In this document: in pieces, positions 960 through 49,875 of the stretch
Layout of the letters: the number at the start of each line of letters is the position of its first letter
Position numbering within the stretch: the stretch's first letter is position 1
Assembly: GCA_965262715.1 (NCBI GenBank)
Contig: OZ253553.1
Coordinates: forward strand, 528,830 to 592,829
Length of the DNA: 64,000 nucleotides
Direction of reading: 5' to 3'
From: Bdellovibrionales bacterium
GTDB taxonomy: Bacteria; Bdellovibrionota; Bdellovibrionia; Bdellovibrionales; JAUICD01
Position numbers and translations under genes: made by a program
Notes under the pieces: generated by a model
Seen by the model: only the letters and a program-made list of their open reading frames with translations
What the model was told of the DNA's origin: nothing
Databases searched by the model: none

Positions 960-1500
960 AATAAAATAAGCGTTTAGCTAAGGGCTGTTTCAGTAAAAGT
1001 GCATCTCGCCTCTGGCGACTTTTTGGCAGTAAGCCTGGCGGTTAGAACCGTCGGCAAATAGCTTACTGCCTAGAAAGGCTAATGCATTTTAGTAGGGAGG
1101 ATCTTCTTGTTTCTTAACACAATGTTAGGGAAATTTTATTCTTGCCATCGGATCAGTACCTAGATTTATTTCATGGACAATCCTCAAAGAGGCTCACCTC
1201 GAGAGGCTCACCTCGAGAGGCTTGTCTTCTATTCATTTTGAGTAAAACAGAATGAAGGAAATTTTCTTTAACATGATGTAAAAGAATGAAGATATTCTCC
1301 TTACTTAAAATAAATGGATTTTTGAGGCAGTCAGCATTTTGTTGACGGGGATACATCCCGTAGTGTTAACCGTCAAGTTGGCTGCCCAAAAACAACCAGA
1401 GGTTGATTTATTTTGAGTGAAATAAATTAAATACAAAACTGGTATCTTTTTTAAAACTTTTCTCTCTAGGAGCATTTTTGAGATGGCTTTTATTATATTT
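960..1500 (-). repeat. composite dispersed hairpin-repeat block (inverted, rearranged copy of the 29510-29860 array leader plus a 34260-34380-like module)
   Basis: The reverse complement of 992-1240 aligns by eye with 29600-29860 (gcctctggcgac...ctgcctagaaaggctaatgcattttagtagggaggatc...). 1441-1500 matches the gccatctcaaaaatg segment at 29517. 1290-1430 matches 34260-34380. Confidence 0.8.
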
Positions 1501-1686
1501 TTTGATAATAATAAAAATTACTTAGCTATTAATGACTTAAAAAGCATAGATAAACTTTAAAGGAGCTTTGGAACGACTGATTTAAGTGTGTAAATAATTC
1601 ATAGTTTGTGATATATAACTATTTCTTTTTTACATACAAGTTGTTTGCTATTGATAATTTGGTTGAATTTTGATATAAGACCGGAC

Positions 1687-4560: not shown

Positions 4561-4762
4561 CTTTATTATTATATTTTTTGATAATAGTAAAAGTTACTTG
4601 GCTATTAATGACTTAAAAAGCATAGATAAACTTTAAAGGAGCTTTGGAACGACTGATTTAAGTGTGTAAATAATTCATAGTTTGTGATATATAACTATTT
4701 CTTTTTTACATACAAGTTGTTTGCTATTGATAATTTGGTTGAATTTTGATATAAGACCGGAC

Positions 4763-7558: not shown

Positions 7559-9400
7559 CTATGTGTTCTTAGATGTACTTAATCTGTGTGCTGCAGAGAA
7601 CTTTGTAATCCATGTTGCTTTTTCTTTAAATTTTATACCTACTTTATTCTCTGACATCCAAACAATTTTTCCAGAGAGTGTAACATCTTCTCCATCTTGT
7701 TTTGATAGAAGGATATCCACTTGAGAGCCTCTCTTTAACTGTTGAGTAGAGTTATCTATTGAGATACCAGCACCACCCTGTGAGATAGAAAATAAATTCG
7801 CAGACATAAAGTGATTGTTGAATGAGAGGTGAAGTGGAATATCTACTTCATATCTCTGCTCTCTTCTCTTAGATTGTGATGTAGCCTTCTGCTTTAAGAA
7901 TAACCAAACCATTAAAGGGAGGGCTAGCATAAAGCTAAAAAGTGCTCTTGGCAGATGAGCGCCTCGGCCGCCTTTTCCATTATTTTTGTATGATTTCATC
8001 TGATGCAAGTTTGAATACATATTATGAACGAGTCCACAACCTCCAGCCATTGATGAGGAAGATGAAAAGACACGGCTACTGTATTCTGGCATAGCAAAAC
8101 TAGGATTGTATCCTTGAGCCTTTGAAACAGCTTTTAAAGCATTTAATCTTCTTTCATTTTGTACGTAGCCATTTAAAGATGCTACAGTATCTGCAGAATT
8201 AAGTATAATTTCCTTAACTTCATATCCATTAAGCTCTGGTTGTGCATAGAGTGTTAGTGCTGTTGCGCCTGATACATAAGGGGTTGCCATACTTGTTCCA
8301 GATAAATTAGTATTTTGGTTATTCGGATATGTACTTTGAACATTCACACCAGGAGCACTCAAATGGACAGAGGTGGTACCATAATTAGAAAAATTACTTG
8401 CAAAAATATCATTGAAGGTGGTTGCAGCAACTGAAATAACATGAGGAACTGGATAGTTGGCTGGGTAAAAAGGTATGATATCATTATTAGATGCATTATT
8501 TCCTGCTGCAGCTACAAAGACAACACCAGCATTATAACTTCTTGTAACAGCTTCATGGAGTGCATTACTGTAAGCATCGTTTCCCCAAGAGTTGTTTAAG
8601 ACTTTAGCTCCATTATTAATGGCATAATCAATAGCGCCGATAGCACTGGATGTTGAGCCAACGCCATCACATCCTAAAAACTTTAATGGCATAATACAAA
8701 AGGCAGAACTCTCTGTTGCATCACCGACAACAGTTTGCTTAACAATTCCAGCAACATGGGTGCCATGTCCATCACAATCGCTCAAATCTTTATTATGATC
8801 TGTAAAGTTCCAACCATGTACATCATCATCAAAGCCATTGCCATCATTATCATAACCATCACCAGCCACTTCCTCTGTATTATTACAGATAATACCTTGA
8901 AGATCACTATGTGTGATGTCAGTTCCTGTATCAATGACTGCAATTTTTACCATTTCATTGTTAAGAGTTTGGATGGCATTTCTCGCGGCTTCTGCAAAAA
9001 TAGGATCTGGGTTGCTATATGTAGATTGGCTGAATGTTTTATCAGTATTCGTTTTACTAATAATATAGTTAGGTTCTATATATTCTATATCTGGATGATT
9101 TCCAACTTGTTCAATAATCTCTTCAGTTGATTGACCATCTTCAATTCCACTGAAGTGGTGCATACTAAAATTATTAAAGGATTGCTGTAGTGTCAGACTA
9201 ACAGAGCCTGAAACGCCTTGAAGTGTCAAATTGCCAGTATCTTCGCTTAAGCTTTGTCTAACTGATGAACTCTCAGGAGAATCCTTAAATTTGATAATAA
9301 CGTCACCTTCAACATAACCTAAAGAGGATTGCCCATATACAGTCTGAAAATTTAAAGTGACTAATAGAATAATAGATAATTTTACTAAATGATAAAACAC
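7559..9400 (-). CDS. S8 subtilisin-family serine protease fused through a TM helix to a C-terminal PilZ-like domain
   Basis: Signal peptide present. Catalytic triad motifs AVIDTGTD, HGTHVAGI and GTSMATPYVSG. TM segment ALFSFMLALPLMVWLFL. The last ~103 aa carry RREQR (RxxxR) and SISQGG (xSxxG) PilZ-type motifs. Confidence 0.85.
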   Translation of the reverse strand: MFYHLVKLSIILLVTLNFQTVYGQSSLGYVEGDVIIKFKDSPESSSVRQSLSEDTGNLTLQGVSGSVSLTLQQSFNNFSMHHFSGIEDGQSTEEIIEQVGNHPDIEYIEPNYIISKTNTDKTFSQSTYSNPDPIFAEAARNAIQTLNNEMVKIAVIDTGTDITHSDLQGIICNNTEEVAGDGYDNDGNGFDDDVHGWNFTDHNKDLSDCDGHGTHVAGIVKQTVVGDATESSAFCIMPLKFLGCDGVGSTSSAIGAIDYAINNGAKVLNNSWGNDAYSNALHEAVTRSYNAGVVFVAAAGNNASNNDIIPFYPANYPVPHVISVAATTFNDIFASNFSNYGTTSVHLSAPGVNVQSTYPNNQNTNLSGTSMATPYVSGATALTLYAQPELNGYEVKEIILNSADTVASLNGYVQNERRLNALKAVSKAQGYNPSFAMPEYSSRVFSSSSSMAGGCGLVHNMYSNLHQMKSYKNNGKGGRGAHLPRALFSFMLALPLMVWLFLKQKATSQSKRREQRYEVDIPLHLSFNNHFMSANLFSISQGGAGISIDNSTQQLKRGSQVDILLSKQDGEDVTLSGKIVWMSENKVGIKFKEKATWITKFSAAHRLSTSKNT

Positions 9401-13702: not shown

Positions 13703-15541
13703 CTATAAATCGAATGTTTTTAAAAACCTAGATATTTTTCTCTCTTTTTCATCTCCCCAGGGCATTTTTCTTTTTTTAGGCCAAGTGACATATAAAAATC
13801 GCTTTGACCTAGTGAAGGCCACATACAGATTATTTTCTTCTTGCTTAAGATCAATACCCTTTTTTTGTATAGCTCGATAATCAGGGAATGTTTCATCATC
13901 CATACCTATTAGAAAGACGATATCAAACTCCTGCCCTTTCATTGTGTGAACTGTACTTAATGTAATACCTTTGTGTGGAATTGATTGATGAGTTTGGCCT
14001 AATGCCATTGCATTTTTGAACTGTAGTAATGACTTTGTGTCTGTTGTACTGGCGTATTTATTCCAATGTTTTATCAAATCATCAATGTCATTAAAGATCA
14101 TATTTCTTTCATTTTCTTCGCTATAATCAGTAAGTGTATTTTTAAAACTTTTCAAAAGATATTTTAGATTATTCCCATCATCATCTAAATTTATAACTAA
14201 CTGGATAAGAGCCTTATGTTGTTTATTATTTATAGTTGATATAATTTCTTCCAGTGATTTTTCTTTTGAGATATTTGATTTTAGTTTCTCAAGGAGTTTT
14301 CCTTTATGTAATTTATCTTGAGGATTTAATTTAACTTTAAGTGCAAGGTCAAACATATTGATTAGATCAGATTCAAATTGAACTGAACCTATTCGCATTT
14401 TATAATAAAAAGGTATACCCTTAGATTTTAATTGAGTATTGATTTGATTAAAAAGATATTTATTACGGGCAAGGATAACTATTTTTTCGTAAGTGATTTG
14501 ACCTTCAATATCTGGATGTTTTTGTATAGAGACTAGTTCATTGATTTTATCAATAATCCATAAGGCTTCTTTTTCTTCATCTTCTATGCCTTGCAATTCA
14601 AAGATACCTTGTTTCACTGTGTGAGGTATGTCTTTAGCACTAGGAAATATCTTTTTAGTAGCAGATAAAACCTCTTGAGATGAACGATAGTTTTCTTCTA
14701 GTTCTATGACTTCAGGTTTAAAGTCTTTAATAAAAAACTCGGTCATATATTTTGGTGAAGATCCATTGAAATGAAAAATGGATTGGTTAGGATCTCCAAC
14801 CATCATCACATTGTCGAATTGACCTCCTGTTAGAGCCAGCAAGAATTGATATTGGGCATTATTTAAATCTTGGGCCTCATCAATACAAATTGCATAAAAA
14901 CTACGGCGGTACAAGTCCGCCACATTTGGATATTCAATAAATAGTTTGTATGCTAGAATAAGCAGGTCATCAAAGTCTATACCATTTTGACTGCTTAATA
15001 TATCTTGATAATTTTTATAAAGAAGTATTTTTTCATCATCTTTAGATTGAGAGTCTTCTTCAAGTTTACCCATATTCCTTTTAACTTTGGCTATAAATTT
15101 CAATACTTGGTATAAAAATCTTTTTTTCTTTTTCTCATCTTTATTCCTATAAATATTTTCATAAGATGGGGTTAAATTGATAGCTTGTTCTATTAGCTCT
15201 AATCTATCATTTTCGTTTTCAAATATATGAGGCATTTTTTCTAAGCCAATAAGATATCCATGATTTCTCAATGTTTTTTGACAAAATCCATGGAATGTTC
15301 CTACAAAAACTCTTTTATCTAAAGTAGATATACCATTTAATCTTTCTTTGACTTCTTCTCCCGCTTTATGGGTAAAGGTAAGAGCAAGTATCTGCTTCTT
15401 AGTTTTATCTAATAAAATTCTCACTCGTTCTGTAAGAACTCTTGTCTTTCCACTTCCAGCACTGGCTTTGACACAAATGGGCTTATCCTCAAGGTTGACA
15501 ATACTTTTTTGAGTTTCAGATAATTCAATTTTTGCTGACAT
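13703..15541 (-). CDS. UvrD/PcrA/Rep-like SF1 helicase (GajB-like)
   Basis: Walker A ASAGSGKTRVL, CIDEAQDLN, VGTFHGFC, LEENYRSS, TVHTMKGQEFD, LYVAFTRSK. Its start overlaps the upstream OLD-like gene by 17 nt. Confidence 0.85.
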   Translation of the reverse strand: MSAKIELSETQKSIVNLEDKPICVKASAGSGKTRVLTERVRILLDKTKKQILALTFTHKAGEEVKERLNGISTLDKRVFVGTFHGFCQKTLRNHGYLIGLEKMPHIFENENDRLELIEQAINLTPSYENIYRNKDEKKKKRFLYQVLKFIAKVKRNMGKLEEDSQSKDDEKILLYKNYQDILSSQNGIDFDDLLILAYKLFIEYPNVADLYRRSFYAICIDEAQDLNNAQYQFLLALTGGQFDNVMMVGDPNQSIFHFNGSSPKYMTEFFIKDFKPEVIELEENYRSSQEVLSATKKIFPSAKDIPHTVKQGIFELQGIEDEEKEALWIIDKINELVSIQKHPDIEGQITYEKIVILARNKYLFNQINTQLKSKGIPFYYKMRIGSVQFESDLINMFDLALKVKLNPQDKLHKGKLLEKLKSNISKEKSLEEIISTINNKQHKALIQLVINLDDDGNNLKYLLKSFKNTLTDYSEENERNMIFNDIDDLIKHWNKYASTTDTKSLLQFKNAMALGQTHQSIPHKGITLSTVHTMKGQEFDIVFLIGMDDETFPDYRAIQKKGIDLKQEENNLYVAFTRSKRFLYVTWPKKRKMPWGDEKERKISRFLKTFDL

Positions 15542-18500
15542 TGGTTTTATCCTTATTATTATAGTAATCTTTTATTTTATTAAACAAATTTTCTATTTTT
15601 GGAGGAAGTTTGTTACCTTTTATAATTTCTTTTGCCACTGCCTCTCCCATTCTAATCTTATCATCTTTCATAATTTCAAGAAGTCGTTCATCATCGTAAC
15701 TTTCAACTTCTTCTTTTTTTGCAGCTTTATGTTGTTCATTCTTGCAATGAAGTGATAAATAGGCTTTCTTTATTTGCTCTTGGAAGCCATTAGAAATGAG
15801 TTGCTTTTCAAAATCATTACCATCATCCAAAAAAACAACAAACACTTTTGGATCCTTCTTTATTTTAAGTACCTTGGTTTCAACTTCTCCAACAGTATTT
15901 TGATCTGCATCACTAAAGATAAAGCAAGGTATATTTAGAGATTTAGCAAACTTTATAAAAGGAGCATAATTTTTTCCTCCAACTCCTACAAAGTTTAAAC
16001 CTATATCGGAAGGATGTTTCTGAAAGAACTTTTCTGCAAAGATAGGTAGTGCTCGAGATTCAGTTTTTCCTTCTGAAAAAACAATAAAGTTTGAAAAAAT
16101 AATCTCTCCGTGAGTATGAGTCACATGAACTTCAATTTTGCTTTCATCTTCAGATGATAATCCTGTTACTTTTCCGCAGGTTACTTGATTGCTTTTATAC
16201 AATCCTCTAATTTGCCTTATCTTTGCTTTTGCAGCTACATAGGGAGAGTGGGTTGAAATGATCTTTTGGCCTTCAATAGAATTTATTTGATGATAAAGCT
16301 GTTTTTGAGCGTTTGGATGCAAATGAGCTTCAGGCTCTTCTATTGCAAGAATTGGGAAAAACACATTGTCTTGCTCTTGGAATTTTTTTGTAAGCGATGA
16401 AATAAATGCTTTTAAAGTAAGAAGTGATGACCAACTTCTTGTTCCCATACCATGATATTCCATAGAAAAACTATCTGTTTGTTCACCATAATAAATGGAT
16501 AGCCCTTTATTTAAATCTCTTACCTTTTTTGTAAAAGGTGTGATTTCAACATTGGCTTTGTCGTTACCCATAGTTGAGTTAATTTCTCCTAGTACAATCT
16601 TGATATGTGACAAAATGGCACTGCTATCAACGGCTTTTTCATTAAGTGATTTGATTTGATCTTCAATATCTTTGATGTCTTTTTCAGTATATTCTATTTT
16701 TGAAATCATTTTCCCAAGATAAGAACTTTTAAGCTTTATGTCTTTAAGAATATCTCTTTGAGCATCGATGTAAAAGAAAGGTATTTCATCAAAATAAAAG
16801 CGGATTTTATCCCCATCATCTTTATCAAACCAATTTGTATTCTTGTCTTTAAATTTTGGCCAGCCGTTTATAGAAAATTGTTTTTTTTTAAAACTATTTG
16901 TTATTGGATCGAATTTTATTTTTGTTCTAAATGGGAACTGGTTTCTATTGGAATCATCAGGATCAGGTTTAATATTTGCTGCTTGAAATACAGATACCCA
17001 ATCATCTGTGAAGTTCTCACATATATTCCCTTCATCATCAACAGGGACAATAAGAGTATCTATTATAATTTCCTCTGAAGCAGAGTTTTCTTTTATAAAA
17101 AAATCATCCTGAGAGATAAACTGGTGATTGCCAAAAGCCAATTGCAATGCATATAGAATAGAAGACTTACCAGTATTATTTGCTCCTGTTAAAACAGTGG
17201 TTTTTTCTAAATCTATTTCAATATTTTCAAGCCCTCTAAAACCTCTAATACGAATAGTTTTGATTAAAATATCCTTTGGTTCTTGCTGCTGTATTTTTTC
17301 TTCTTTCTTTTGTTGTTCCTTCTTCTTTTCCTCTTTTTGTTCTTTTGCTTTTTCTGCTTTTATTTCATTGAAAAGTTTTGCCATATCTTGTTTTACTATA
17401 TAGTCATATCTTTTTTCAAACTGGGGATAATGATCTTTTGTAATTTTTAAGATATCTGCTATAAAGCCATTTAACTTATAGAGAGGAAAAATTAATGAAG
17501 ATAGGGCTTCTTTTGCTTGAAGGATCAGGTCTCTTAATTTGTGACCATGCTGTGTATTGGAAAGAGTGATTTTATTTGCTAAAAGAAAAGCTATATCCAA
17601 TGCATATATGGGTAACTTTGAGATAGACCTAAAAGCTTCTTGCTCTTTATTTCTACAAATTTGATAAAATCCTTTTTCATCAAATGATATGGTTTTTTCT
17701 TGAGCTATTTTTCTGAGGGGATCCATAAAAAATTTCTGCTCATAAATTTTTAAAATATGTTTGCCTGTATCAGGAGTAGGTTTTTTATCTGTTGAAGGTA
17801 CTTCGAACTCTTTATCTGTTGAAGAAATGAAACCACATTCTTTAAAAAAGCTTACAGTATTTTCAGAATTGTTCCATATATAAGAAGCTATAAAATCTTT
17901 TCTTTCTTTGAGAAGAGCACGCTGTATATTATAGATGAGATATTTTTCATCCCCATCAGAAAGTTGCCAATTGCTTTCTGATATTATTTTTGTTATAATA
18001 TCTATAAAATATTGATCTCCATTAAAGAGTTTATTAAAGAATGCCTTTTTTGTAGGTTCCGATTGGTTGTTCATATAATCATAATAAGATTGGTTAGTTA
18101 TTAGATTATTATTTGTATTTGCTATAATCCCTTCAATATATTGATCAGCTAGGCCTCTTAAAAGAATCAATCTTGTTACTGAAAGATTATTTTCGACTTG
18201 AAGATTGTGAGTAATATATCTTTCGTCTTTATCAGAAAAGGTCTGTGCTAAATGAGTATTGATTTCTTCAGATCTGTTTGGTTCTTTGAGATGAATATAT
18301 TTATTTTGATAGAGTTTGAAAATAAACTCCCCTGAAATAGGCTTTTTATTGGCTATCAGTTTATCAAGTTCTTTTTTAAGTTGTTGATTATTTTGTAAGC
18401 TTCTTGAGTGTGTTATTTGCATTTTTTTACAGATGAGATCTAAAAATTGCTTTTTTCTAACAACATCATCTCCTTTTAAAACACTCATTAGTTTTTCAAA

Positions 18501-18776
18501 AAAAGATTCTTCACTACTTCTATTGTAATAAGGAGGAAAAGGAAGAAACTCCTGACGAACTCTTGGAATATCTGAAAAAGGCAAAACCCAATCTATATCT
18601 TGGTTGTTAGAAATGCTTAGGTTAGCAATAATAGGCAAAAGCTGATCTTCAAATAAAATATCTTTATGTCCTTGTCCTTCTTCAAGTGCCTTGAAATATT
18701 CAATAAACCTTTGACGTATTTCATCACTGGTTAAATGTTTCATAATTGACCTATTTTGATTAATGCATACTTTCAC
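15525..18776 (-). CDS. OLD-family ATPase + Toprim nuclease (GajA-like) with ~500-aa N-terminal AlaRS-like extension
   Basis: C-terminal ~580 aa carry Walker A GANNTGKSS, ILAIEEPEAHLHPNAQ, ISTHSP, and Toprim FSEGKTE ... FIFSDADQ. A K/E-rich linker lies at about aa 471-503. The N-terminal region is described in findings. Start is GTG 18776 or, more likely, ATG 18743 (MKHLTSDEIRQ). Confidence 0.85.
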   Translation of the reverse strand: MKVCINQNRSIMKHLTSDEIRQRFIEYFKALEEGQGHKDILFEDQLLPIIANLSISNNQDIDWVLPFSDIPRVRQEFLPFPPYYNRSSEESFFEKLMSVLKGDDVVRKKQFLDLICKKMQITHSRSLQNNQQLKKELDKLIANKKPISGEFIFKLYQNKYIHLKEPNRSEEINTHLAQTFSDKDERYITHNLQVENNLSVTRLILLRGLADQYIEGIIANTNNNLITNQSYYDYMNNQSEPTKKAFFNKLFNGDQYFIDIITKIISESNWQLSDGDEKYLIYNIQRALLKERKDFIASYIWNNSENTVSFFKECGFISSTDKEFEVPSTDKKPTPDTGKHILKIYEQKFFMDPLRKIAQEKTISFDEKGFYQICRNKEQEAFRSISKLPIYALDIAFLLANKITLSNTQHGHKLRDLILQAKEALSSLIFPLYKLNGFIADILKITKDHYPQFEKRYDYIVKQDMAKLFNEIKAEKAKEQKEEKKKEQQKKEEKIQQQEPKDILIKTIRIRGFRGLENIEIDLEKTTVLTGANNTGKSSILYALQLAFGNHQFISQDDFFIKENSASEEIIIDTLIVPVDDEGNICENFTDDWVSVFQAANIKPDPDDSNRNQFPFRTKIKFDPITNSFKKKQFSINGWPKFKDKNTNWFDKDDGDKIRFYFDEIPFFYIDAQRDILKDIKLKSSYLGKMISKIEYTEKDIKDIEDQIKSLNEKAVDSSAILSHIKIVLGEINSTMGNDKANVEITPFTKKVRDLNKGLSIYYGEQTDSFSMEYHGMGTRSWSSLLTLKAFISSLTKKFQEQDNVFFPILAIEEPEAHLHPNAQKQLYHQINSIEGQKIISTHSPYVAAKAKIRQIRGLYKSNQVTCGKVTGLSSEDESKIEVHVTHTHGEIIFSNFIVFSEGKTESRALPIFAEKFFQKHPSDIGLNFVGVGGKNYAPFIKFAKSLNIPCFIFSDADQNTVGEVETKVLKIKKDPKVFVVFLDDGNDFEKQLISNGFQEQIKKAYLSLHCKNEQHKAAKKEEVESYDDERLLEIMKDDKIRMGEAVAKEIIKGNKLPPKIENLFNKIKDYYNNKDKTNVSKN

Positions 18777-21230: not shown

Positions 21231-21318
21231 CTTTTACTTAAGATTGATTTTAGTAGAAATATTTTTCCTTAACGCTAATAAAAAATGAAAAGATATTACT
21301 TTCTAACAATACCTCAAG

Positions 21319-21419
21319 CTTTCTAAGCAGCAAGCTACTCTCCGATGGTGTTATAACCATCGGGCTTGCTGCCAGAAGGTGGCCGGAGGCTTGCCTCGAG
21401 AGGCTTGCCTCAAGAGGCC
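21319..21419. repeat. hairpin-repeat family member (third stem variant) plus gaggcttgcctc tandem motif
   Basis: ctttctaagcagcaagc ... gcttgctgccagaagg long stem with nested ccgatggt/accatcgg, followed by ggcttgcctcgagaggcttgcctcaagaggcc. Confidence 0.7.
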
Positions 21420-21446
21420 AGATGTTGGCTGTGCTGGTAGTCTGAC

Positions 21447-22862: not shown

Positions 22863-23041
22863 TGGTTATTTTCCTTTATCTTTTTATTTCATTCCTCATA
22901 TCTCTATCAGCGTTGGTTTGGTTTTTATCTATGACAGAGAGGTTTAGAAAAGATTTATTAGAACTCACCTCAAAATTACTTTTAATGTCCACGTTTTCAA
23001 AACAACCTCTTAATTTAAGTACCGTATAAAAGAACTGTTTC

Positions 23042-23200
23042 ACTCAAAATGGACCCTTCCGGCTTTCCGTAGAGCCACTATCATGGCTCTCGTCAAGTCT
23101 GTTCATTTTGAGTAAGAAGCCATCTTTAGTTATATTATGTTTTGTATTTTGCAATTTCGTATTATTTACTGTTATCATGTATTTTTGAGATGGCTTCTAA
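23042..23200. repeat. hairpin-repeat family module with ACTCAAAATG termini plus gccatctcaaaaat segment
   Basis: actcaaaatggac ... gttcattttgagt inverted termini enclosing a gagccactatcatggctc hairpin, then tgtatttttgagatggcttc (also at 1470, 29517 and 49790). Confidence 0.7.
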
Positions 23201-26245: not shown

Positions 26246-26276
26246 AAAATATCAATTATTATTTATACAAAGTTAT

Positions 26277-26415
26277 TTTCCGGGAATCTGGCAACCCGGC
26301 AGTCCGGAAAACAGTATCCGGAATCTGGCATCGGTGATTTTGTTAATTTTTTTTTGTTAAAATTTAAGTTACCTGATGCTGTCTCCGGCTTGCCTGATTG
26401 CTGGATCCCGGAAAA
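26277..26415. repeat. GC-rich palindromic intergenic repeat with TTTTCCGGGA / TCCCGGAAAA termini
   Basis: ttttccgggaatctggcaacccggcagtccggaaaacagtatccggaatctggca...ctccggcttgcctgattgctggatcccggaaaa. Confidence 0.75.
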
Positions 26416-27154: not shown

Positions 27155-27236
27155 TTTTCTCCCGGAATCTGGCAATCCAGCAGTCGGGCAATTAGTTCCC
27201 GGAAACCGGTTTCCCGGAAGCCAGATCCCTGGTAAA
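27155..27236. repeat. GC-rich palindromic intergenic repeat
   Basis: tctcccggaatctggcaatccagcagtcgggcaattagttcccggaaaccggtttcccggaagccagatccctgg; near-identical core to 33933-34018. Confidence 0.8.
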
Positions 27237-27550: not shown

Positions 27551-27650
27551 TATCTTTAAAAAAAGATATTTAGATATAATTTGACTATTTATATCCTTAA
27601 ATAAGGTTATTATATATTATTCTATTTGTTTTTATCCTTAAAAAAGGATA
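27551..27650 (+). promoter_or_regulatory. three phased HipB-type operators overlapping a candidate hipBA promoter
   Basis: Operators TATCT-N8-AGATA (27551-27568), TATCC-N8-GGTTA (27592-27609) and TATCC-N8-GGATA (27633-27650), each start 41 bp apart. Candidate promoter is TTGTTT (27626-27631), 17 nt, TATTAT (27649-27654). Confidence 0.65.
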
Positions 27651-27676
27651 TTATTATAAAAAAAAGGGTTATTTAT

Positions 27677-27910
27677 ATGAAAAAAGGTATTGAAGAAACA
27701 GAGGTATCAAGATTTGGTTTGTTCATTAAACAAAAGCGTAAAAATAGAGGTATAACTCAAAAGGAGTTAGCTAGGCATGCAAGGGTCAGTTTTACATTGG
27801 TCAATCGTATAGAAAATGGAGATATAAAATTAAATATATCTTCTGTAAATAAAGTTTTGAAAGTTTTTGGATGCGCACTTGCCCCTGTTCGTTTAGAGAT
27901 TAAAGAATGA
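27677..27910 (+). CDS. hipB: XRE-family HTH antitoxin HipB
   Basis: 77 aa from ATG 27677. HTH segment GITQKELARHARVSFTLVNRIENG. Its stop overlaps the hipA start (ATGA). Confidence 0.8.
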   Translation: MKKGIEETEVSRFGLFIKQKRKNRGITQKELARHARVSFTLVNRIENGDIKLNISSVNKVLKVFGCALAPVRLEIKE

Positions 27911-29310
27911 AAAATATTGCAAATGAAGAGAATTATATGTCAGAGATAAAAAAAATAATAAATACAAAGAAGGCTTGGGTTTATTTAAGAGATATTCTAG
28001 CAGGGGAGCTTGAAAAATCCGATGAGGCTTCTGTAGTTTTTAAATTCACTTATTTTAAAGATTATTTAGAAAGTCAAAACCCAGAAATAGCTCGAGCTTT
28101 TCCTAAAAGAAAAGAATCTTATATCAGTTCAGATTTACACCCTTTTTTTGATAATCTTATTGTTGAAGGATGGTTATTAACATATACAGAAAAACTTTTA
28201 CATATTCATAAATTAGATCGTTTCAAACTGCTTATGGCTACAGGAAGCGCTCCTATTGGGGCTGTAAGTGTGAGACCTGTTTATAATCAACAACCTATCA
28301 ATATGACTGAAGTTCTTTTTAATAAAAACACAGAAGTTCACTTTATTAAAGAACCTAATAAGATGAGAGATACATTTCATTTTTGTCCATCTTGTTTTCG
28401 GGAATTAGGAGGGGATGAAGTGCATAGAAAGTGTACTATAGCTATGTGGGGCACAACAAGAAAGTTGAAATTAAAAATAAATAAAGATAGTCCTGATGAA
28501 ATGTTTGGATCTACTATTTATGGAGGTTCTATATCTGGTCATCAAAAAAAGGGAATGTTTAAAATCAACAGCAGGACAGGTGAATTGGTACCTACACCTG
28601 ATAGAGCAACTCATATCTTAAAGCCATCTGGACATTTACCAGAGTTGCCAGAAAATGAACATGTCACAATGGCTATTGCAAAAGCTTTGAAATTTCCTAC
28701 ACCTTCGTTTGATTTGTTGGAATTTGAAGGCATAGGGAGAGTGTTTGCCACTGCTCGCTTTGATCGCAGTTTGGATGGAATGAGATTGCCATTGATGCAA
28801 GAGGATATGTGTCAGGTTATAGGGGTTTCAAGTGATAGAAAATATGATCTAAGTTATGAGAAGATTGCAAAAGCAATTAGAAAACACAGCTTGGCGCCTT
28901 TGGTTGATCTTTATGATTTTTATCGTAGGTTTGTTTTTTGTTATCTTGTGCTTAATGGGGATATGCACTTAAAAAATTGGTCTTTACTTGAAAGTCAAAA
29001 AGAGTTAGGTAGCTTTGTATTAGCGCCCTGTTACGATCTTTTAAATACAAGAATTTTTTTATCAAGAGAGTTAACGGATATAGCTCTACAGTTGAATGGA
29101 AAAGATAGGAATCTTACTAAAAAGGATATTTCCTATTTTGGTAAAGATATTGGTCTTAGTGCTGAAACTATTGAACTTATTTTTAGCGAGCTTTCAAGCT
29201 GGTTGGAGGTGATTAAAAAATACATAAATTTGTGTTTGCTTAGTAAGAAGTCAAAAGAAGCTTACCTTGAAGGTGTTTATAAAAGGTATAACATTTTATT
29301 AAAGAAATAA
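27907..29310 (+). CDS. hipA: HipA-family serine/threonine kinase toxin
   Basis: MQEDMCQVIGVSSDRKY and NGDMHLKNWSLL match the HipA C-terminal kinase motifs. N-terminal coupling region present. CxxC...HxxC element FCPSCFRELGGDEVHRKC. Confidence 0.8.
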   Translation: MKNIANEENYMSEIKKIINTKKAWVYLRDILAGELEKSDEASVVFKFTYFKDYLESQNPEIARAFPKRKESYISSDLHPFFDNLIVEGWLLTYTEKLLHIHKLDRFKLLMATGSAPIGAVSVRPVYNQQPINMTEVLFNKNTEVHFIKEPNKMRDTFHFCPSCFRELGGDEVHRKCTIAMWGTTRKLKLKINKDSPDEMFGSTIYGGSISGHQKKGMFKINSRTGELVPTPDRATHILKPSGHLPELPENEHVTMAIAKALKFPTPSFDLLEFEGIGRVFATARFDRSLDGMRLPLMQEDMCQVIGVSSDRKYDLSYEKIAKAIRKHSLAPLVDLYDFYRRFVFCYLVLNGDMHLKNWSLLESQKELGSFVLAPCYDLLNTRIFLSRELTDIALQLNGKDRNLTKKDISYFGKDIGLSAETIELIFSELSSWLEVIKKYINLCLLSKKSKEAYLEGVYKRYNILLKK

Positions 29311-29340
29311 AAAATATCAATTATTATTTATACAAAGTTA

Positions 29341-29505
29341 TTTTCCGGGAAACAGGCAACCCGGCAGTCAGTTTCCGGGATCCATTCAGTCCATTCTTGA
29401 GAGCTAGATTATAGTTTATCTAAAAAGATATAGATGAAACTTTCTACTTTCTTAATTCCTAAATCCCGGAGTTCAGTTTCACAGAGACCGGATTCCGGGT
29501 AAAAA
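29341..29505. repeat. GC-rich palindromic repeat, split into two halves by an ~80-bp AT-rich insert
   Basis: ttttccgggaaacaggcaacccggcagtcagtttccgggatcc ... aaatcccggagttcagtttcacagagaccggattccgggtaaaaa. Confidence 0.7.
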
Positions 29506-29739
29506 GAAGTTCTAGAAGCCATCTCAAAAATGCAGCTAGAGATAACAATTTTAGAAAAAATACCAGCTTTATATTATACAAAGAATTCCATGAGATGGCC
29601 TTTACTCAAAATGAATAGAAGACAAGCCTCTCGAGGCAAGCCTTTTTGAGGATTGCCCATGAAATAAATCTAGGTACTGATCCGATGGCAAGAATAAAGT
29701 TTCCCTAACATTGTGTTAAGAAACAAGAAGATCCTCCCT

Positions 29740-32700
29740 ACTAAAATGCATTAGCCTTTCTAGGCAGTAAGCTATTTGCTGACGATGTGAACCGCCTGAG
29801 CTGACTACCAGAAAGTCGCCAGAGGCTAGCCTCGAGAGGCGAGATGCATTTTAGAGAAAAAAAAGCAGGTTCATTTTGAGGAAGACAGCTTTTTTATATA
29901 AGAAATTAGAGGTAATAGGTACAAATGTTCATAGACTTTTACTGAAACAGCACGATTCCCTTAACATGATGTTAAATAATGAGGAGTATCTGGTTTACTA
30001 AAATGCATCAGGCTTTCCAGGTAGTCAGCTATTTGCTGACGATGTGAACCGCCTGAGCTGACTACCAGAAAGTCGCCAGAGGCTCGCCTCGAGAGGCGAG
30101 ATGCATTTTAGTGAAAAAAAAGCAGGTTTATTTTGAGGAAGACAGCTCTTTTATATAAGAAATTAGAGGTAATAGGTACAAACGTTCATAGACTTTTACT
30201 GAAACAGCACGATTCCCTTAACATGATGTTAAATAATGAGGAGTATCTGGTTTACTAAAATGCATCAGGCTTTCTAGGTAGTCAGCTATTTGCTGACGAT
30301 GTGAACCGCCTGAGCTGACTACCAGAAAGTCGCCAGAGGCTCGCCTCGAGAGGCGAGATGCATTTTAGTGAAAAAAAAGCAGGTTTATTTTGAGGAAGAC
30401 AGCTCTTTTATATAAGAAATTAGAGGTAATAGGTACAAACGTTCATAGACTTTTACTGAAACAGCACGATTCCCTTAACATGATGTTAAATAATGAGGAG
30501 TATCTGGTTTACTAAAATGCATCAGGCTTTCTAGGTAGTCAGCTATTTGCTGACGATGTGAACCGCCTGAGCTGACTACCAGAAAGTCGCCAGAGGCTCG
30601 CCTCGAGAGGCGAGATGCATTTTAGTGAAAAAAAAGCAGGTTTATTTTGAGGAAGACAGCTCTTTTATATAAGAAATTAGAGGTAATAGGTACAAACGTT
30701 CATAGACTTTTACTGAAACAGCACGATTCCCTTAACATGATGTTAAATAATGAGGAGTATCTGGTTTACTAAAATGCATCAGGCTTTCTAGGTAGTCAGC
30801 TATTTGCTGACGATGTGAACCGCCTGAGCTGACTACCAGAAAGTCGCCAGAGGCTCGCCTCGAGAGGCGAGATGCATTTTAGTGAAAAAAAAGCAGGTTT
30901 ATTTTGAGGAAGACAGCTCTTTTATATAAGAAATTAGAGGTAATAGGTACAAACGTTCATAGACTTTTACTGAAACAGCACGATTCCCTTAACATGATGT
31001 TAAATAATGAGGAGTATCTGGTTTACTAAAATGCATTAGCCTTTCTAGGCAGTAAGCTATTTGCTGACGATGTGAACCGCCTGAGCTGACTACCAGAAAG
31101 TCGCCAGAGGCTAGCCTCGAGAGGCGAGATGCATTTTAGAGAAAAAAAAGCAGGTTCATTTTGAGGAAGACAGCTTTTTTATATAAGAAATTAGAGGTAA
31201 TAGGTACAAATGTTCATAGACTTTTACTGAAACAGCACGATTCCCTTAACATGATGTTAAATAATGAGGAGTATCTGGTTTACTAAAATGCATCAGGCTT
31301 TCTAGGTAGTCAGCTATTTGCTGACGATGTGAACCGCCTGAGCTGACTACCAGAAAGTCGCCAGAGGCTCGCCTCGAGAGGCGAGATGCATTTTAGTGAA
31401 AAAAAAGCAGGTTCATTTTGAGGAAGACAGCCCTTTTATATAAGAAATTAGAGGTAATAGGTACAAACGTTCATAGACTTTTACTGAAACAGCACGATTC
31501 CCTTAACATGATGTTAAATAATGAGGAGTATCTGGTTTACTAAAATGCATCAGGCTTTCTAGGTAGTCAGCTATTTGCTGACGATGTGAACCGCCTGAGC
31601 TGACTACCAGAAAGTCGCCAGAGGCTAGCCTCGAGAGGCGAGATGCATTTTAGTGAAAAAAAAGCAGGTTCATTTTGAGGAAGACAGCCCTTTTATATAA
31701 GAAATTAGAGGTAATAGGTACAAACGTTCATAGACTTTTACTGAAACAGCACGATTCCCTTAACATGATGTTAAATAATGAGGAGTATCTGGTTTACTAA
31801 AATGCATCAGGCTTTCTAGGTAGTCAGCTATTTGCTGACGATGTGAACCGCCTGAGCTGACTACCAGAAAGTCGCCAGAGGCTAGCCTCGAGAGGCGAGA
31901 TGCATTTTAGTGAAAAAAAAGCAGGTTCATTTTGAGGAAGACAGCTCTTTTATATAAGAAATTAGAGGTAATAGGTACAAACGTTCATAGACTTTTACTG
32001 AAACAGCACGATTCCCTTAACATGATGTTAAATAATGAGGAGTATCTCGTTTACTAAAATGCATCAGGCTTTCTAGGTAGTCAGCTATTTGCTGACGATG
32101 TGAACCGCCTGAGCTGACTACCAGAAAGTCGCCAGAGGCTCGCCTCGAGAGGCGAGATGCATTTTAGTGAAAAAAAAGCAGGTTCATTTTGAGGAAGACA
32201 GCCCTTTTATATAAGAAATTAGAGGTAATAGGTACAAACGTTCATAGACTTTTACTGAAACAGCACGATTCCCTTAACATGATGTTAAATAATGAGGAGT
32301 ATCTGGTTTACTAAAATGCATCAGGCTTTTTAGGTAGTCAGCTATTTGCTGACGATGTGAACCGCCTGAGCTGACTACCAGAAAGTCGCCAGAGGCTCGC
32401 CTCGAGAGGCGAGATGCATTTTAGTGAAAAAAAAGCAGGTTTATTTTGAGGAAGACAGCTCTTTTATATAAGAAATTAGAGGTAATAGGTACAAATGTTC
32501 ATAGACTTTTACTGAAACAGCACGATTCCCTTAACATGATGTTAAATAATGAGGAGTATCTGGTTTACTAAAATGCATCAGGCTTTCTAGGTAGTCAGCT
32601 ATTTGCTGACGATGTGAACCGCCTGAGCTGACTACCAGAAAGTCGCCAGAGGCTCGCCTCGAGAGGCGAGATGCATTTTAGTGAAAAAAAAGCAGGTTCA

Positions 32701-33465
32701 TTTTGAGGAAGACAGCTCTTTTATATAAGAAATTAGAGGTAATAGGTACAAACGTTCATAGACTTTTACTGAAACAGCACGATTCCCTTAACATGATGTT
32801 AAATAATGAGGAGTATCTGGTTTACTAAAATGCATCAGGCTTTCTAGGTAGTCAGCTATTTGCTGACGATGTGAACCGCCTGAGCTGACTACCAGAAAGT
32901 CGCCAGAGGCTAGCCTCGAGAGGCGAGATGCATTTTAGTGAAAAAAAAGCAGGTTCATTTTGAGGAAGACAGCCCTTTTATATAAGAAATTAGAGGTAAT
33001 AGGTACAAACGTTCATAGACTTTTACTGAAACAGCACGATTCCCTTAACATGATGTTAAATAATGAGGAGTATCTGGTTTACTAAAATGCATCAGGCTTT
33101 CTAGGTAGTCAGCTATTTGCTGACGATGTGAACCGCCTGAGCTGACTACCAGAAAGTCGCCAGAGGCTCGCCTCGAGAGGCGAGATGCATTTTAGTGAAA
33201 AAAAAGCAGGTTCATTTTGAGGAAGACAGCTCTTTTATATAAGAAATTAGAGGTAATAGGTACAAACGTTCATAGACTTTTACTGAAACAGCACGATTCC
33301 CTTAACATGATGTTAAATAATGAGGAGTATCTCGTTTACTAAAATGCATCAGGCTTTCTAGGTAGTCAGCTATTTGCTGACGATGTGAATCGTCAGGCTG
33401 ACTACCAGAAAGTCGCCAGTCAGGCTGACTACCAGAAAGTCGCCAGAGGCGAGATGCATTTTAGT
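29740..33465 (+). repeat. tandem array of 14.5 x 257-bp noncoding units (15 palindromic modules, 14 spacers)
   Basis: The motif ctaaaatgcat recurs at 29741 + 257n for n = 0..14. Units differ only at a handful of SNP positions. No ORF of 60 aa or more on either strand, and 257 is not a multiple of 3. The leader 29510-29739 is homologous to 1094-1500 (reverse complement). Confidence 0.95.
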
Positions 33466-33546
33466 GAAAATAGTTAGATAAAGTTATGAACCACTGGAAA
33501 TGTTTATTAAGTTTTTATTTTTGAGACCAGTTCTAATTAAGTTGTA

Positions 33547-33858
33547 TCATGCTACTGTGACAGTTAAGTTAATGTGTGCATCTCTTAACTTGTCTTGGAG
33601 TGCAAGTTGAATCCAATATGCTTCTGGTTCTCCAATAGCACAAGCAATATTTTTTGCTGTTGTAGGAGATGGGATCTTCTTTCCTTTCTCAATATCAGAA
33701 AGACTTTGAACAGATAGTCCCAATAGAGCAGCACATTTACGTAAGGTTAAATTACGACATTGCCTTTCTGAAGCAATAGCAGATGCAAAAGTGAGTCTTC
33801 CAATATCTCGACTAAGTTCTTTTGTTCCATATTTTATCGTATATTTTTTCTTTGCCAT
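33547..33858 (-). CDS. XRE-family HTH protein (HigA-like, orphan)
   Basis: LTLRKCAALLGLSVQSLSDIEKGKKIPS helix-turn-helix; 103 aa; no credible partner ORF adjacent. Confidence 0.7.
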   Translation of the reverse strand: MAKKKYTIKYGTKELSRDIGRLTFASAIASERQCRNLTLRKCAALLGLSVQSLSDIEKGKKIPSPTTAKNIACAIGEPEAYWIQLALQDKLRDAHINLTVTVA

Positions 33859-33932
33859 TGTATTTCCTTTAATATTTGTGTTTGTGCACTCAAATTATAA
33901 TAATAAAATTTATATTTGCATCTATTTTTATG

Positions 33933-34018
33933 TTTTTTCCGGTAGTCCGGTAAACCGGTAGTCGGGCCATCAGTTCCCGGAAACCGGTTTCACGGAGGCC
34001 AGATCCCGGATAAAAAAA
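33933..34018. repeat. GC-rich palindromic intergenic repeat
   Basis: ttttttccggtagtccggtaaaccggtagtcgggccatcagttcccggaaaccggtttcacggaggccagatcccggataaaaaaa. Confidence 0.8.
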
Positions 34019-34072
34019 GAAACCTTTTGTAAAATATATTGTAACCTCTTGACTATTTGAATAAAAAACACA
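34005..34072 (+). repeat. 68-bp direct repeat, copy 1 (copy 2 at 34450-34518, upstream of dnaJ)
   Basis: cccggataaaaaaagaaa(a)c(c)ttttgtaaaatatattgtaacc.cttgactatttgaataaaaaacaca occurs at both positions with 3-4 differences. Confidence 0.85.
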
Positions 34073-34106
34073 TTCATTTTCCTTAAAATAAACTAACTTC
34101 TGTTTC

Positions 34107-34205
34107 ACTAAAATGCATCTGGCCTCTGGCCATTTTCTGGCGATGACCCTGACATGTTTACACTGTCAGTATGGTCATCGCCTGGAAAAATTGATGCATT
34201 TTAGT
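34107..34205 (+). repeat. hairpin-repeat module with canonical termini but a different internal stem
   Basis: actaaaatgcatc ... gatgcattttagt termini are identical to the array modules. The internal stem is ggcgatgaccctgacatg / (ca)tgtcagtatggtcatcgcc instead. Confidence 0.8.
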
Positions 34206-34417
34206 AGGGAGGATATCTTCATTGTCTTACGTCATGTTAGGGAAATCCTTGTTGTTTATCAGTCAGCCTGACGGGTCGTAGCGTCAGTAAAAAGCTGATT
34301 GCCTCAAAAATTCATTTATTTTAAGGAGGGAGATATTCTTTATGTTCTTACATCATGTTAAGGAAAACTTTCTATAATGTATTTTAAAGATTCATAACTA
34401 CTTAAACATTTTTCCAA

Positions 34418-34518
34418 GTTCCCAGAGATCGGATTCCCGGAGGCCATGTCCCGGATAAAAAAAGAAAACTTTTATAAAATATATTGTAACCCCTTGACTA
34501 TTTGAATAAAAAACACAT
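34418..34518 (+). repeat. partial GC-rich repeat plus 68-bp direct repeat copy 2
   Basis: ttcccagagatcggattcccggaggccatgtcccggataaaaaaagaaaacttttataaaatatattgtaaccccttgactatttgaataaaaaacaca. Confidence 0.8.
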
Positions 34519-34590
34519 CTTATAAGAGCGGATGTATCCAAATGGGGTCTATTCTTTCGTCTTATTATAAAGCAATAAATAGGTTTGAGT

Positions 34591-40204: not shown

Positions 40205-40437
40205 TAGTTTTATTGAACATTGTTGTATAAATATTAGATATAATGATTCAAAATGAGAGCTTACCGAAGTCCCTTGTAGTACAATCCATGAATAAAGAAA
40301 ACTTGCTATTTTAATTTTAACTCAAATTGTAAAAGATAAAGCTTTATTTTTGATGTAGCTTCTATTATTGTAAATCATATTCCTATGTTAAAATAAATTA
40401 AGGTTACTTTCTAACTATCCATAAAAGGGTTTTAATT

Positions 40438-49602: not shown

Positions 49603-49875
49603 TATTGAAATACCTTTAAAAAGATATAATTGACGGCTTTTTATATAAGTATTTCGGTAGAAGCCTTAAAATACTTAAATAAAATATCTCTTTGTCTATG
49701 GATTTATATTAAGTATCAAATAAATCTGATAGCCTTATTGTAATTTCTTGCCTAAAACTGCATTTCTGAAATCTAATTTACTGCTATCATGTATTTTTGA
49801 GATGGCTTTTAAAAGAAAGCTTTTTAGACTAAAAATCTTTTGAATTTTTTTCATTTTAGTGTTTTAATATTACTT

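Follow-up and report, generated by a model that had tools for sequence, protein, structure and literature searches.

What is the 3.7-kb tandem array that lies between hipBA and a convergent XRE gene on a Bdellovibrionales contig, and how did it arise? The array belongs to the 64,000-nucleotide stretch analysed here (contig OZ253553.1, positions 528,830 to 592,829 of the forward strand, hereafter the window). A first-pass annotation had described it as near-identical 257-bp units, each with a long imperfect palindrome, and, while assigning it to no known element class, had named as candidates a multicopy structured RNA locus, amplified units resembling miniature inverted-repeat transposable elements (MITEs), and a protein-binding or satellite-type array. 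We put the probability at about 60% that the array is a young, transposon-derived satellite, that is, the expanded interior of an IS5-type MITE, grown from a functional RNA-like module. The expansion itself was probably neutral or weakly selected, and this account requires no function for it.

Tandem Repeats Finder placed the array at 29739-33419 and counted 14.3 copies of a 257-bp period, with 98% matches and no indels. Both the 13-mer ACTAAAATGCATC and its reverse complement recurred at an exact 257-bp spacing, with 15 plus-strand copies from 29740 to 33338, which confirms the period and the 15 occurrences given in the first-pass annotation. On both strands together, ACTAAAATGCATC had 40 matches at no more than 2 mismatches, against 3.9 expected. 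The array is laid out as follows, the last two lines being examples taken from single units:

29740..33337, plus strand: 14 complete units of 257 bp; a unit comprises a 117-nt palindrome with a three-way junction and a 140-nt spacer that ends in the TTAACATGATGTTAA box
33338..33465, plus strand: a 15th palindrome, rearranged and without a spacer, with a 27-bp internal duplication and the second GC hairpin lost; matched by our covariance model (CM) at 33302-33472 with 141.8 bits
30254..30370, plus strand: palindrome of unit 3, with P1 formed by ACUAAAAUGCAUC/GAUGCAUUUUAGU, P2 a long bulged hairpin, and P3 and P3b short GC hairpins
30475..30489: perfect 7-1-7 inverted repeat TTAACATGATGTTAA in the unit "leader," whose half-site ATGTTAA(G/A) is kept in all copies of the family described below

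A unit-by-unit comparison gave 13 variable positions. All five biallelic sites reported earlier were found again, at unit positions 89, 133, 151/152, 187 and 253, and the variants are spread over the units as a non-periodic mosaic, in line with the earlier description. The 140-nt spacers are alike in every unit. Units 1 and 6 do share a distinct left-arm variant, and they have the same sequence over the full 257 bp; their variant matches a dispersed copy of the palindrome in the window (copy C, 985-1128). Each of these two units is the left arm of copy C joined to an array-type right arm, with two mismatches in P2 as the result, and these hybrid arms point to recombination between family members. 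The rearrangement of the last unit and the loss of its GC hairpin were also as the annotation had seen them; Tandem Repeats Finder placed the 27-bp duplication at 33392-33446.

Searches with RecA and DnaJ put the window in Bdellovibrionota; its nearest relatives are ENA metagenome-assembled contigs with RecA 82-88% identical. The syntenic loci that we compared (L006, L007, L009 and L008/L016, the last being two stretches of one contig) follow the order recA - rhomboid - glyoxalase - rpmG - 523-aa open reading frame (ORF) - hipBA - pilin-like - dnaJ - dnaK. Further loci came from L015 (more distant, DnaJ 67% identical), L010 (non-syntenic) and L013 (short, without dnaJ). In none of the five related loci that span the region is there such an array between hipA and dnaJ. 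This absence, together with the 98% identity and the mosaic, makes "satellite-type array" the best of the earlier descriptions for the expansion. Another sample yielded the same strain (L014, 99.99% identical); its contig begins at window position 33842, 377 bp from the array, and because it does not span the array it is silent on copy number.

The earlier statement that the array contains no ORF was nearly right. There is one 41-aa, TTG-initiated ORF on the plus strand of each unit, the longest there, and it has no Pfam match. We rejected it as a small protein gene: it lacks a Shine-Dalgarno sequence and is not conserved in the L007 unit, since just a 17-nt block aligns in the spacer region that holds most of it. 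ORFs of 5-14 aa that start at an AUG in P1 were rejected as genes as well, their frame and length shifting between copies.

We read the array as the expanded interior of a single element because ends that resemble terminal inverted repeats (TIRs), with TA flanks, enclose it. The parts of this element, its two siblings in the window and its relative among the insertion sequences (ISs) are:

29513..29514: left TA flank, a putative target-site duplication (AAGTTC, then TA, then GAAGCC, where the element begins)
29515..29531, plus strand: left TIR GAAGCCATCTCAAAAAT, 15/17 against the TIR GAAGCGGTCTCAAAAAT of the IS in L016
29532..29739, plus strand: non-repeated left interior, ending in the "leader" with the CTAACATTGTGTTAAG box
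33466..33516, plus strand: non-repeated right interior
33517..33533, minus strand: right TIR, GAACTGGTCTCAAAAAT in the minus-strand reading, 15/17 against the TIR of the IS in L016
33534..33535: right TA flank (CAGTTC, where the element ends, then TA, then ATTAAG)
22961..23197, plus strand: sibling MITE of 237 bp that carries copy G of the palindrome, TA-flanked, with termini GAACTCACCTCAAAATTAC and GAAGCCATCTCAAAAATAC (16/22)
49660..49809, plus strand: sibling MITE of 150 bp without the palindrome module, with like termini and TA flanks
L016 6996-8052: autonomous IS relative of 1057 bp, with perfect 17-bp TIRs GAAGCGGTCTCAAAAAT and a TA duplication

On the plus strand, the right end reads ATTTTTGAGACCAGTTC and then TA (33517-33535). 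From 29515 to 33533 the element measures 4019 bp, or about 410 bp if collapsed to one palindrome, and it contains no ORF above 41 aa. Its left part is shared with another locus, as window positions 29601-29760 are 89% identical to the reverse complement of 1073-1246 at copy C. A 2-bp duplication alone is weak evidence of insertion; given a TA frequency of 0.086 in the window, six TA flanks would arise by chance with p ~4e-7. The sibling with copy G lies in the glyoxalase-rpmG spacer, and L006 has the corresponding empty site with a single TA (TTTAT-TA-AAAAA). For the IS in L016, neighbouring repeat units show the site without the insertion. The two ORFs of this IS overlap, and an A6G slippery site is present; the IS carries the domains DUF4096 and DDE_Tnp_1 and matches the NCBIfam model NF033580, IS5 family. 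Bacterial MITEs are defined by such features, and their partner IS is inferred from matching ends (PMC2229807, PMC5896051). The array element has most of the features of a MITE and is atypical in its size and in its expanded internal module. Thus, the suggestion of amplified MITE-like units was correct as to the MITE context and not as to the units, since the 257-bp units are not themselves MITEs and the whole array is the interior of one TA-flanked element. One further TIR half-site may be present at 40346-40364 (TA and GAAGCTACATCAAAAAT, 3 mismatches), in the spacer between a SpoIID-domain gene and the next ORF, and may mark the end of a MITE of about 120 bp.

Repeat finding, nhmmer and a covariance model built in this analysis (R1) showed that the palindrome belongs to a dispersed family. 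Besides the 15 array copies, nhmmer and the covariance model found six more diverged copies in the window:

34100..34240, plus strand: copy B, upstream of dnaJ and read in the dnaJ direction (CM 138.2 bits; fold -53.7 kcal/mol)
34243..34361, plus strand: copy F, truncated, adjoining copy B (CM 39.9 bits; nhmmer)
985..1128, plus strand: copy C, with an arm identical to the left arm of units 1 and 6 (CM, sequence comparison)
1268..1425, minus strand: copy D, with variant termini ACUUAAAAUAAAUG.../...UUUAUUUUGAGU and a TIR half-site with TA alongside (1474-1492)
21269..21420, minus strand: copy E, with a degenerate P1, in the 425-bp recA-rhomboid spacer (CM)
23035..23148: copy G, inside the 237-bp sibling MITE (CM)

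The spacer that holds copy E is 425 bp long in the window and 177 bp in L009; in L006-L008 and L013 it measures no more than 30 bp or is missing. The relatives' copies all lie just upstream of dnaJ, two each in L006, L007 and L009 and three in L016; those of L007 form 2.2 tandem units, also with a 257-bp period. No family copies were found by nhmmer and the covariance model in L010 (non-syntenic), L013 (which stops short of dnaJ) or L015. Over the palindrome and leader (about 175 nt), an array unit and the L007 unit share 82% identity, and sequence upstream of copies B and G shows homology to part of the array spacer. Searches beyond the clade gave nothing: the exact palindrome pattern had no matches in GTDB genomes and viral contigs and nothing real in JGI metagenomes (two chance matches were rejected on reading), blastn of the unit found no match among phages and plasmids, a DnaJ-based scan of GTDB genomes returned distant phyla only, and exact-protein look-ups for HipA, XRE and RecA found none on record. 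By these searches, the family is lineage-specific. The Rfam search that the first-pass annotation had named was run with Rfam 15; over the whole window there were 0 matches at or above the gathering threshold, and permissive settings on the array alone gave only chance-level matches, with E above 0.7.

The family is held together by its fold. The 117-nt part of a unit folds at -58.5 kcal/mol (z = -7.7 versus shuffles; opposite strand, -56.6 kcal/mol), in agreement with the long imperfect palindrome described before. It forms a three-way junction in which helix P1 closes the structure, P2 is a long hairpin with bulges, and P3 consists of one or two short GC hairpins; all 14 complete units retain this fold intact. 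A consensus fold from 12 diverged copies contains 46 pairs, with 94% of cells paired and double changes in 25/46 pairs. When partner columns were slid as a control, pairing fell to 30-44%. On four of five measures the observed values were reached by 0/500 shuffles; for further pair types the count was 7/500. The structure goes beyond a simple palindrome, in that a single-base bulge in P2 and an A-rich asymmetric loop below the apical hairpin are both kept. Small side hairpins of the form GCC-N-GGC number 1-4 and vary between copies. The P3 side-hairpin region grows by tandem repeats of about 14 nt, in GAGGCTCACCTCGA or CCACTTGTGG units (window 1175-1235 and 21386-21418; L006 17520-17580), and different copies therefore have 1-4 mini-hairpins. 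Across species the element is 0.85-0.88 identical; the third codon positions of recA, dnaJ and dnaK reach only 0.65-0.72. Judged from the covariation and from this excess of identity, the secondary structure is under selection.

In the relatives, the same module is linked to the promoter of dnaJ-dnaK. The E. coli sigma-32 consensus is CTTGAAA-N13-15-CCCCATNT. Two sites of this type lie upstream of dnaJ in the window:

34493..34520, plus strand: sigma-32-type promoter of dnaJ-dnaK (CTTGACT, N13, ACACATCT)
34048..34075, plus strand: duplicate of the dnaJ promoter (CTTGACT...CACATTC), 32 nt upstream of copy B

The stretches that contain them, 33972-34073 and 34417-34518, are 90% identical. Upstream of dnaJ, every genome of the clade has CTTGACT-N13-(C/T/A)C(C/A)CATCT, including L006, L007, L009, L015 and L016. 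Read in the dnaJ direction, CTTGACT-N13-(C/T)CCCATCT stands directly before the palindrome in both copies of L007, both of L009 and 2/3 of L016, in the layout -10 box, GTTTC, then ACTAAAATGCATC. After the palindrome, a hairpin and U6 follow in L016 and in L009 copy b (L016 example, AAGGAGGAUAUCUUCGUUUUUUG). Because a promoter, a structured body at the predicted start and a hairpin/U-run occur in this layout, the dnaJ-upstream module of the relatives is most likely a gene for a heat-shock-induced structured small RNA (sRNA). Alternatively, the promoter copies could have been passively co-duplicated. The dispersed copies in the window, the TIRs and this link to a dnaJ heat-shock promoter were all missing from the first-pass annotation.

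Several genomes have two or three of these sigma-32-type dnaJ promoters in tandem (window 34048-34075 and 34493-34520; L007 16977-17518; L016 9282-9930), and because of these tandem copies dnaJ-dnaK may be served by several heat-shock promoters separated by structured elements. The TIR GAAGCCATCTCAAAAATGC looks like a condensed junction of the sigma-32 -10 box with the start of P1, CCTCATCT-GTTTCAC-TAAAATGC (for example, L007 17234-17275).

The array units do not show this layout. The promoter scan found no sigma-70-like site of at least 9/12 within the array units on either strand, and a motif scan of all units found no sigma-32-like motif in the array. A weak TTAACA-N17-GAGTAT motif precedes the palindrome in each unit. 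On the plus strand of each unit a terminator-like GC hairpin CTCGCCTCGAGAGGCGAG is followed by a T-run ATGCATTTTA, with no counterpart on the opposite strand; the small hairpin and U-tract found after the relatives' copies are lost in the array unit (0 kcal/mol). We infer that the array is without a promoter of its own; transcripts, if any, would run on from the XRE gene or hipBA or start at weak promoters.

How, then, would the array have formed? In the lineage of the window, MITEs would have spread the module; for copy G this is shown, and for the array and copies C/D it is probable. Within one such element, between hipA and the higA-like XRE gene, the palindrome and its spacer would then have been amplified to 14.5 copies. 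The route may have been unequal crossing-over or replication slippage between tandem copies, as suggested by the 98% identity, the variant mosaic, the two identical non-adjacent units and the rearranged end unit.

Several observations weigh against this reading. The two TIRs of the array element agree at no more than 14/22 positions, and its ends could come from two different elements; because gene order differs in the relatives, they offer no empty site for it. The IS was found in the relative L016 only, there is no transposase among the scanned ORFs of the 64-kb window, and a protein search aimed at the window's genome found no near-identical IS transposase. The hairpin is perfectly kept in 14/14 units, each of which has a perfect 15-bp inverted repeat, and this could reflect selection. 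As to the RNA-like nature of the module, G-U outnumbered A-C by 19 to 16 in one orientation and by 18 to 12 in the opposite one, and a DNA-level hairpin is equally compatible with these counts. A strand call from them was given up as indecisive: they identify no transcribed strand, nor do they separate RNA from single-stranded DNA. The dnaJ promoter fits the sigma-32 type by a consensus that is E. coli's and by its position upstream of dnaJ-dnaK, and the terminator-like hairpins are weak (-3 to -8 kcal/mol). Finally, beyond the palindrome and leader, a 17-nt block in comparable position (p ~0.01) is all that the array spacer has in common with the promoter-bearing spacer of L007. The idea that the unit spacer is a decayed copy of the sigma-32 promoter was without statistical support and was rejected.

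Could the array instead be a working multicopy sRNA locus? Each unit, or processing of a read-through transcript, would then give an RNA of about 117-135 nt, of the dnaJ-upstream family, with the copy number selected for dosage, comparable to NsiR1 or CcsR1-4. Tandem arrays of sRNA genes are known (PMC4030482; PMC8034643). The covariation is strong; conservation extends to the bulge, asymmetric loop and side hairpins, which are not palindromic; and the fold is intact in 14/14 complete units. Sigma-32-type promoters stand before the relatives' copies. Every unit has the terminator-like hairpin with its plus-strand T-run and the upstream TTAACA-N17-GAGTAT motif, and no terminator was seen between the XRE stop codon and the array. 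However, neither strand of the units offers a promoter of at least 9/12 or a sigma-32 motif, and the relatives' hairpin and U-tract is destroyed in them. In units 1 and 6, the left arm of P1/P2 has four changes without compensation, two of them inside the P2 stem. The array is missing from all five related loci that span the region, and 98% identity implies a very recent origin rather than long-term maintenance. Thus, of the structured RNA locus suggested at first, the structure stands by covariation and the relatives' promoters, while the units lack a promoter and the strand is indecisive; a working sRNA locus is possible but on balance unlikely. A related account has the MITE capture an sRNA gene of the heat-shock regulon in the manner of Pack-type elements, scatter it, and expand to a 15-copy array here, transcribed either from weak promoters in the units or by transcription running on out of the higA-like gene. 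Its product, a new class of structured RNA, would then be present at high dose and could act, for instance, as a sponge or regulator linked to the neighbouring toxin-antitoxin and chaperone genes. We consider this decidedly doubtful.

Two other explanations set the RNA aside. As a protein-binding array, the 14 copies would titrate or nucleate a protein in a centromere- or decoy-like manner, with TTAACATGATGTTAA as a putative operator for a dimeric helix-turn-helix (HTH) protein (XRE/HigA-like or HipB). In all family copies, no other part of the "leader" is as well conserved in sequence as the box. The array, L007, L006 and L009 copy b have it as a perfect palindrome of the 7-1-7 or 7-3-7 type, and the array lies between two HTH-containing toxin-antitoxin loci. 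Against this, the three L016 copies keep one half-site (ATGTTAAGG) only, so that dyad symmetry is not conserved; the box always accompanies the hairpin, even far from HTH genes; and a spacing of 257 bp is atypical for iterons. We regard operator function as very improbable. That the assembler inflated one or a few true units deserves mention since tandem repeats of such similarity assemble poorly, and the independent assembly of the same strain breaks at 33842 and leaves the array unspanned. Expansion during assembly is argued against by the source contig, which is apparently 2.94 Mb long and suggests long reads, and by the 13 variable sites in a non-periodic mosaic and the distinct end unit, which are unlike a collapsed or expanded repeat. 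Independently, tandem copies of the module occur in relatives (in L007, 2.2 units of 257 bp), and so does, beside hipA, an array of another element with 5.9 copies of 215 bp. An artefact of this kind would be a considerable surprise.

Other classes of element were considered and rejected. Guide RNAs of IS200/IS605 or TnpB, suspected from the hairpins, were dropped when the neighbouring 377-aa ORF proved to be DnaJ. A dif/Xer site, CIRCE or HAIR operators and a LexA box misfit in box sequence or spacing (by eye, against their consensus sequences). In a CRISPR array the 140-nt spacers would not be alike in all units, as they are here. An integron cassette array was discarded because the units are alike, there are no RYYYAAC/GTTRRRY cores at the palindrome ends and no integrase is present among the scanned ORFs.

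Among known systems, the closest counterparts at the DNA level are bacterial MITEs that an IS with matching ends mobilises in trans, namely the Correia/NEMIS elements of Neisseria and the RUP elements of Streptococcus pneumoniae, the latter linked to IS630-Spn1. Like the elements described here, these are non-coding and intergenic, with TIRs and TA flanks, they occur in several copies with filled and empty sites and IS-like ends, and their transcripts would form very stable stem-loops (PMC2229807, PMC5896051). They differ in that the partner here belongs to the IS5 family (NF033580) and not to IS630, and in that the present element carries an internal structured module that also occurs outside MITEs. 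We know of no bacterial MITE with a 14.5-fold internal tandem expansion (4019 bp), in a literature that was not exhaustively searched. In eukaryotes, internal tandem repeats of MITEs and Helitrons expand into long homogeneous satellite arrays; the present case differs from these transposon-derived satellites in lying on a bacterial chromosome, at a single locus, and in measuring 3.7 kb only. In array form the nearest are NsiR1, described below, and the bacterial interspersed mosaic elements (BIMEs) or repetitive extragenic palindromic (REP) clusters. The latter are mosaics of tandem palindromes and linkers, intergenic between convergent genes and variable in copy number. REP units are about 35 bp long, alternate in orientation and are linked to REP-associated tyrosine transposases (RAYTs), whereas the units here are 257 bp long, all direct, and within IS5-type TIRs.

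Two sRNA systems resemble the locus in part. NsiR1 of heterocystous cyanobacteria is encoded in direct tandem repeats, 12 copies in Anabaena, each with its own promoter (PMC4030482). The likeness lies in about a dozen direct repeats, each a small structured RNA-like unit. In NsiR1, however, every copy has a HetR-dependent promoter and the array is conserved across species, while here the units have no recognisable promoter and the array occurs in one genome; NsiR1 is also a 60-nt sRNA, and the unit here is 257 bp with a 117-nt hairpin. CcsR1-4, the "cuckoo" RNAs of Rhodobacter sphaeroides, are homologous tandem structured RNAs with an RpoH-type heat/stress promoter (PMC8034643). They are the nearest counterpart of the dnaJ-upstream copies of the relatives and not of the array units, which are without a sigma-32 motif. 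CcsR1-4 share one operon promoter, whereas most of the relatives' copies have their own promoter duplicate. The CcsR1-4 locus has a DUF1127 gene and a CCUCCUCCC loop motif, neither of which is seen here, and the present element has no Rfam match.

If the satellite reading holds, the locus would contribute a new covariation-supported structured element, a candidate RNA family absent from Rfam and tied to sigma-32-type promoters by dnaJ-dnaK in an uncultured Bdellovibrionota clade. It would also contribute a bacterial MITE family with a structured module as cargo, and a rare bacterial case of a transposon interior that grew into a satellite-like array. The expansion mechanism, TA-flanked MITEs and hairpin-forming intergenic repeats are already well known, and the candidate RNA family and its MITE-borne spread are the most worthwhile aspects. 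They open to test whether MITEs disseminate regulatory RNA genes in bacteria and whether such arrays are neutral by-products or dosage devices.

The genes that flank the array were identified by a Pfam scan, which bears out the earlier description of hipBA and a convergent XRE gene:

27626-27910: hipB
27907-29310: hipA
33547-33858: HTH_3 (XRE) gene, convergent

The XRE gene is probably a higA-like antitoxin gene, to judge by its homologue in L009. That homologue is preceded by a frameshifted ORF (18046-18353) with a weak match to HigB-like_toxin (E = 0.014, below the Pfam cutoff), and window positions 33859-33945 contain about 75 nt homologous to the 3' end of this HigB-like ORF. Since only these ~75 nt are left, the toxin would have been deleted in the window. 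On the other side, a 59-bp direct duplicate (26246-26304 and 29311-29369, 97% identical) flanks the pilin-like gene and hipBA. The order is pilin-hipBA in the window and hipBA-pilin in the relatives, which fits a tandem duplication followed by deletions.

A second array occurs in the same interval in L016. Directly after hipA it has 5.9 copies of a 215-bp unit (5731-6996, 98% identical), with 1.8 more copies beyond the inserted IS (8053-8443). This unit is a "CCGG" element, with two inverted halves of about 50 bp rich in TCCGGGA and an AT-rich centre. With this array in L016 as well, tandem expansion of non-coding units of about 200-260 bp in the hipA-dnaJ interval is recurrent in the clade. 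Single CCGG elements lie in the window at ~27155-27236, 29460-29500, 33931-34010 and 34420-34470, one of them just upstream of each copy of the sigma-32-type promoter.

Further from the array, a Gabija-like defence pair is encoded on the minus strand at 13703-18776 and is also present in L006, L007 and L013. It consists of a 1083-aa OLD-family ATPase/TOPRIM protein (AAA_15, DUF2813, OLD-like_TOPRIM) and a 612-aa UvrD-type helicase. Two tandem paralogues at 1645-4323 and 4721-7408 encode proteins of 892 and 895 aa without a Pfam domain; they are 77-98% identical at the DNA level in blocks, and their intergenic and 5' regions are 94-98% identical. In L013, and in this relative only, a Transposase_31 (PF04754) gene lies between cinA and recA (8167-9132).

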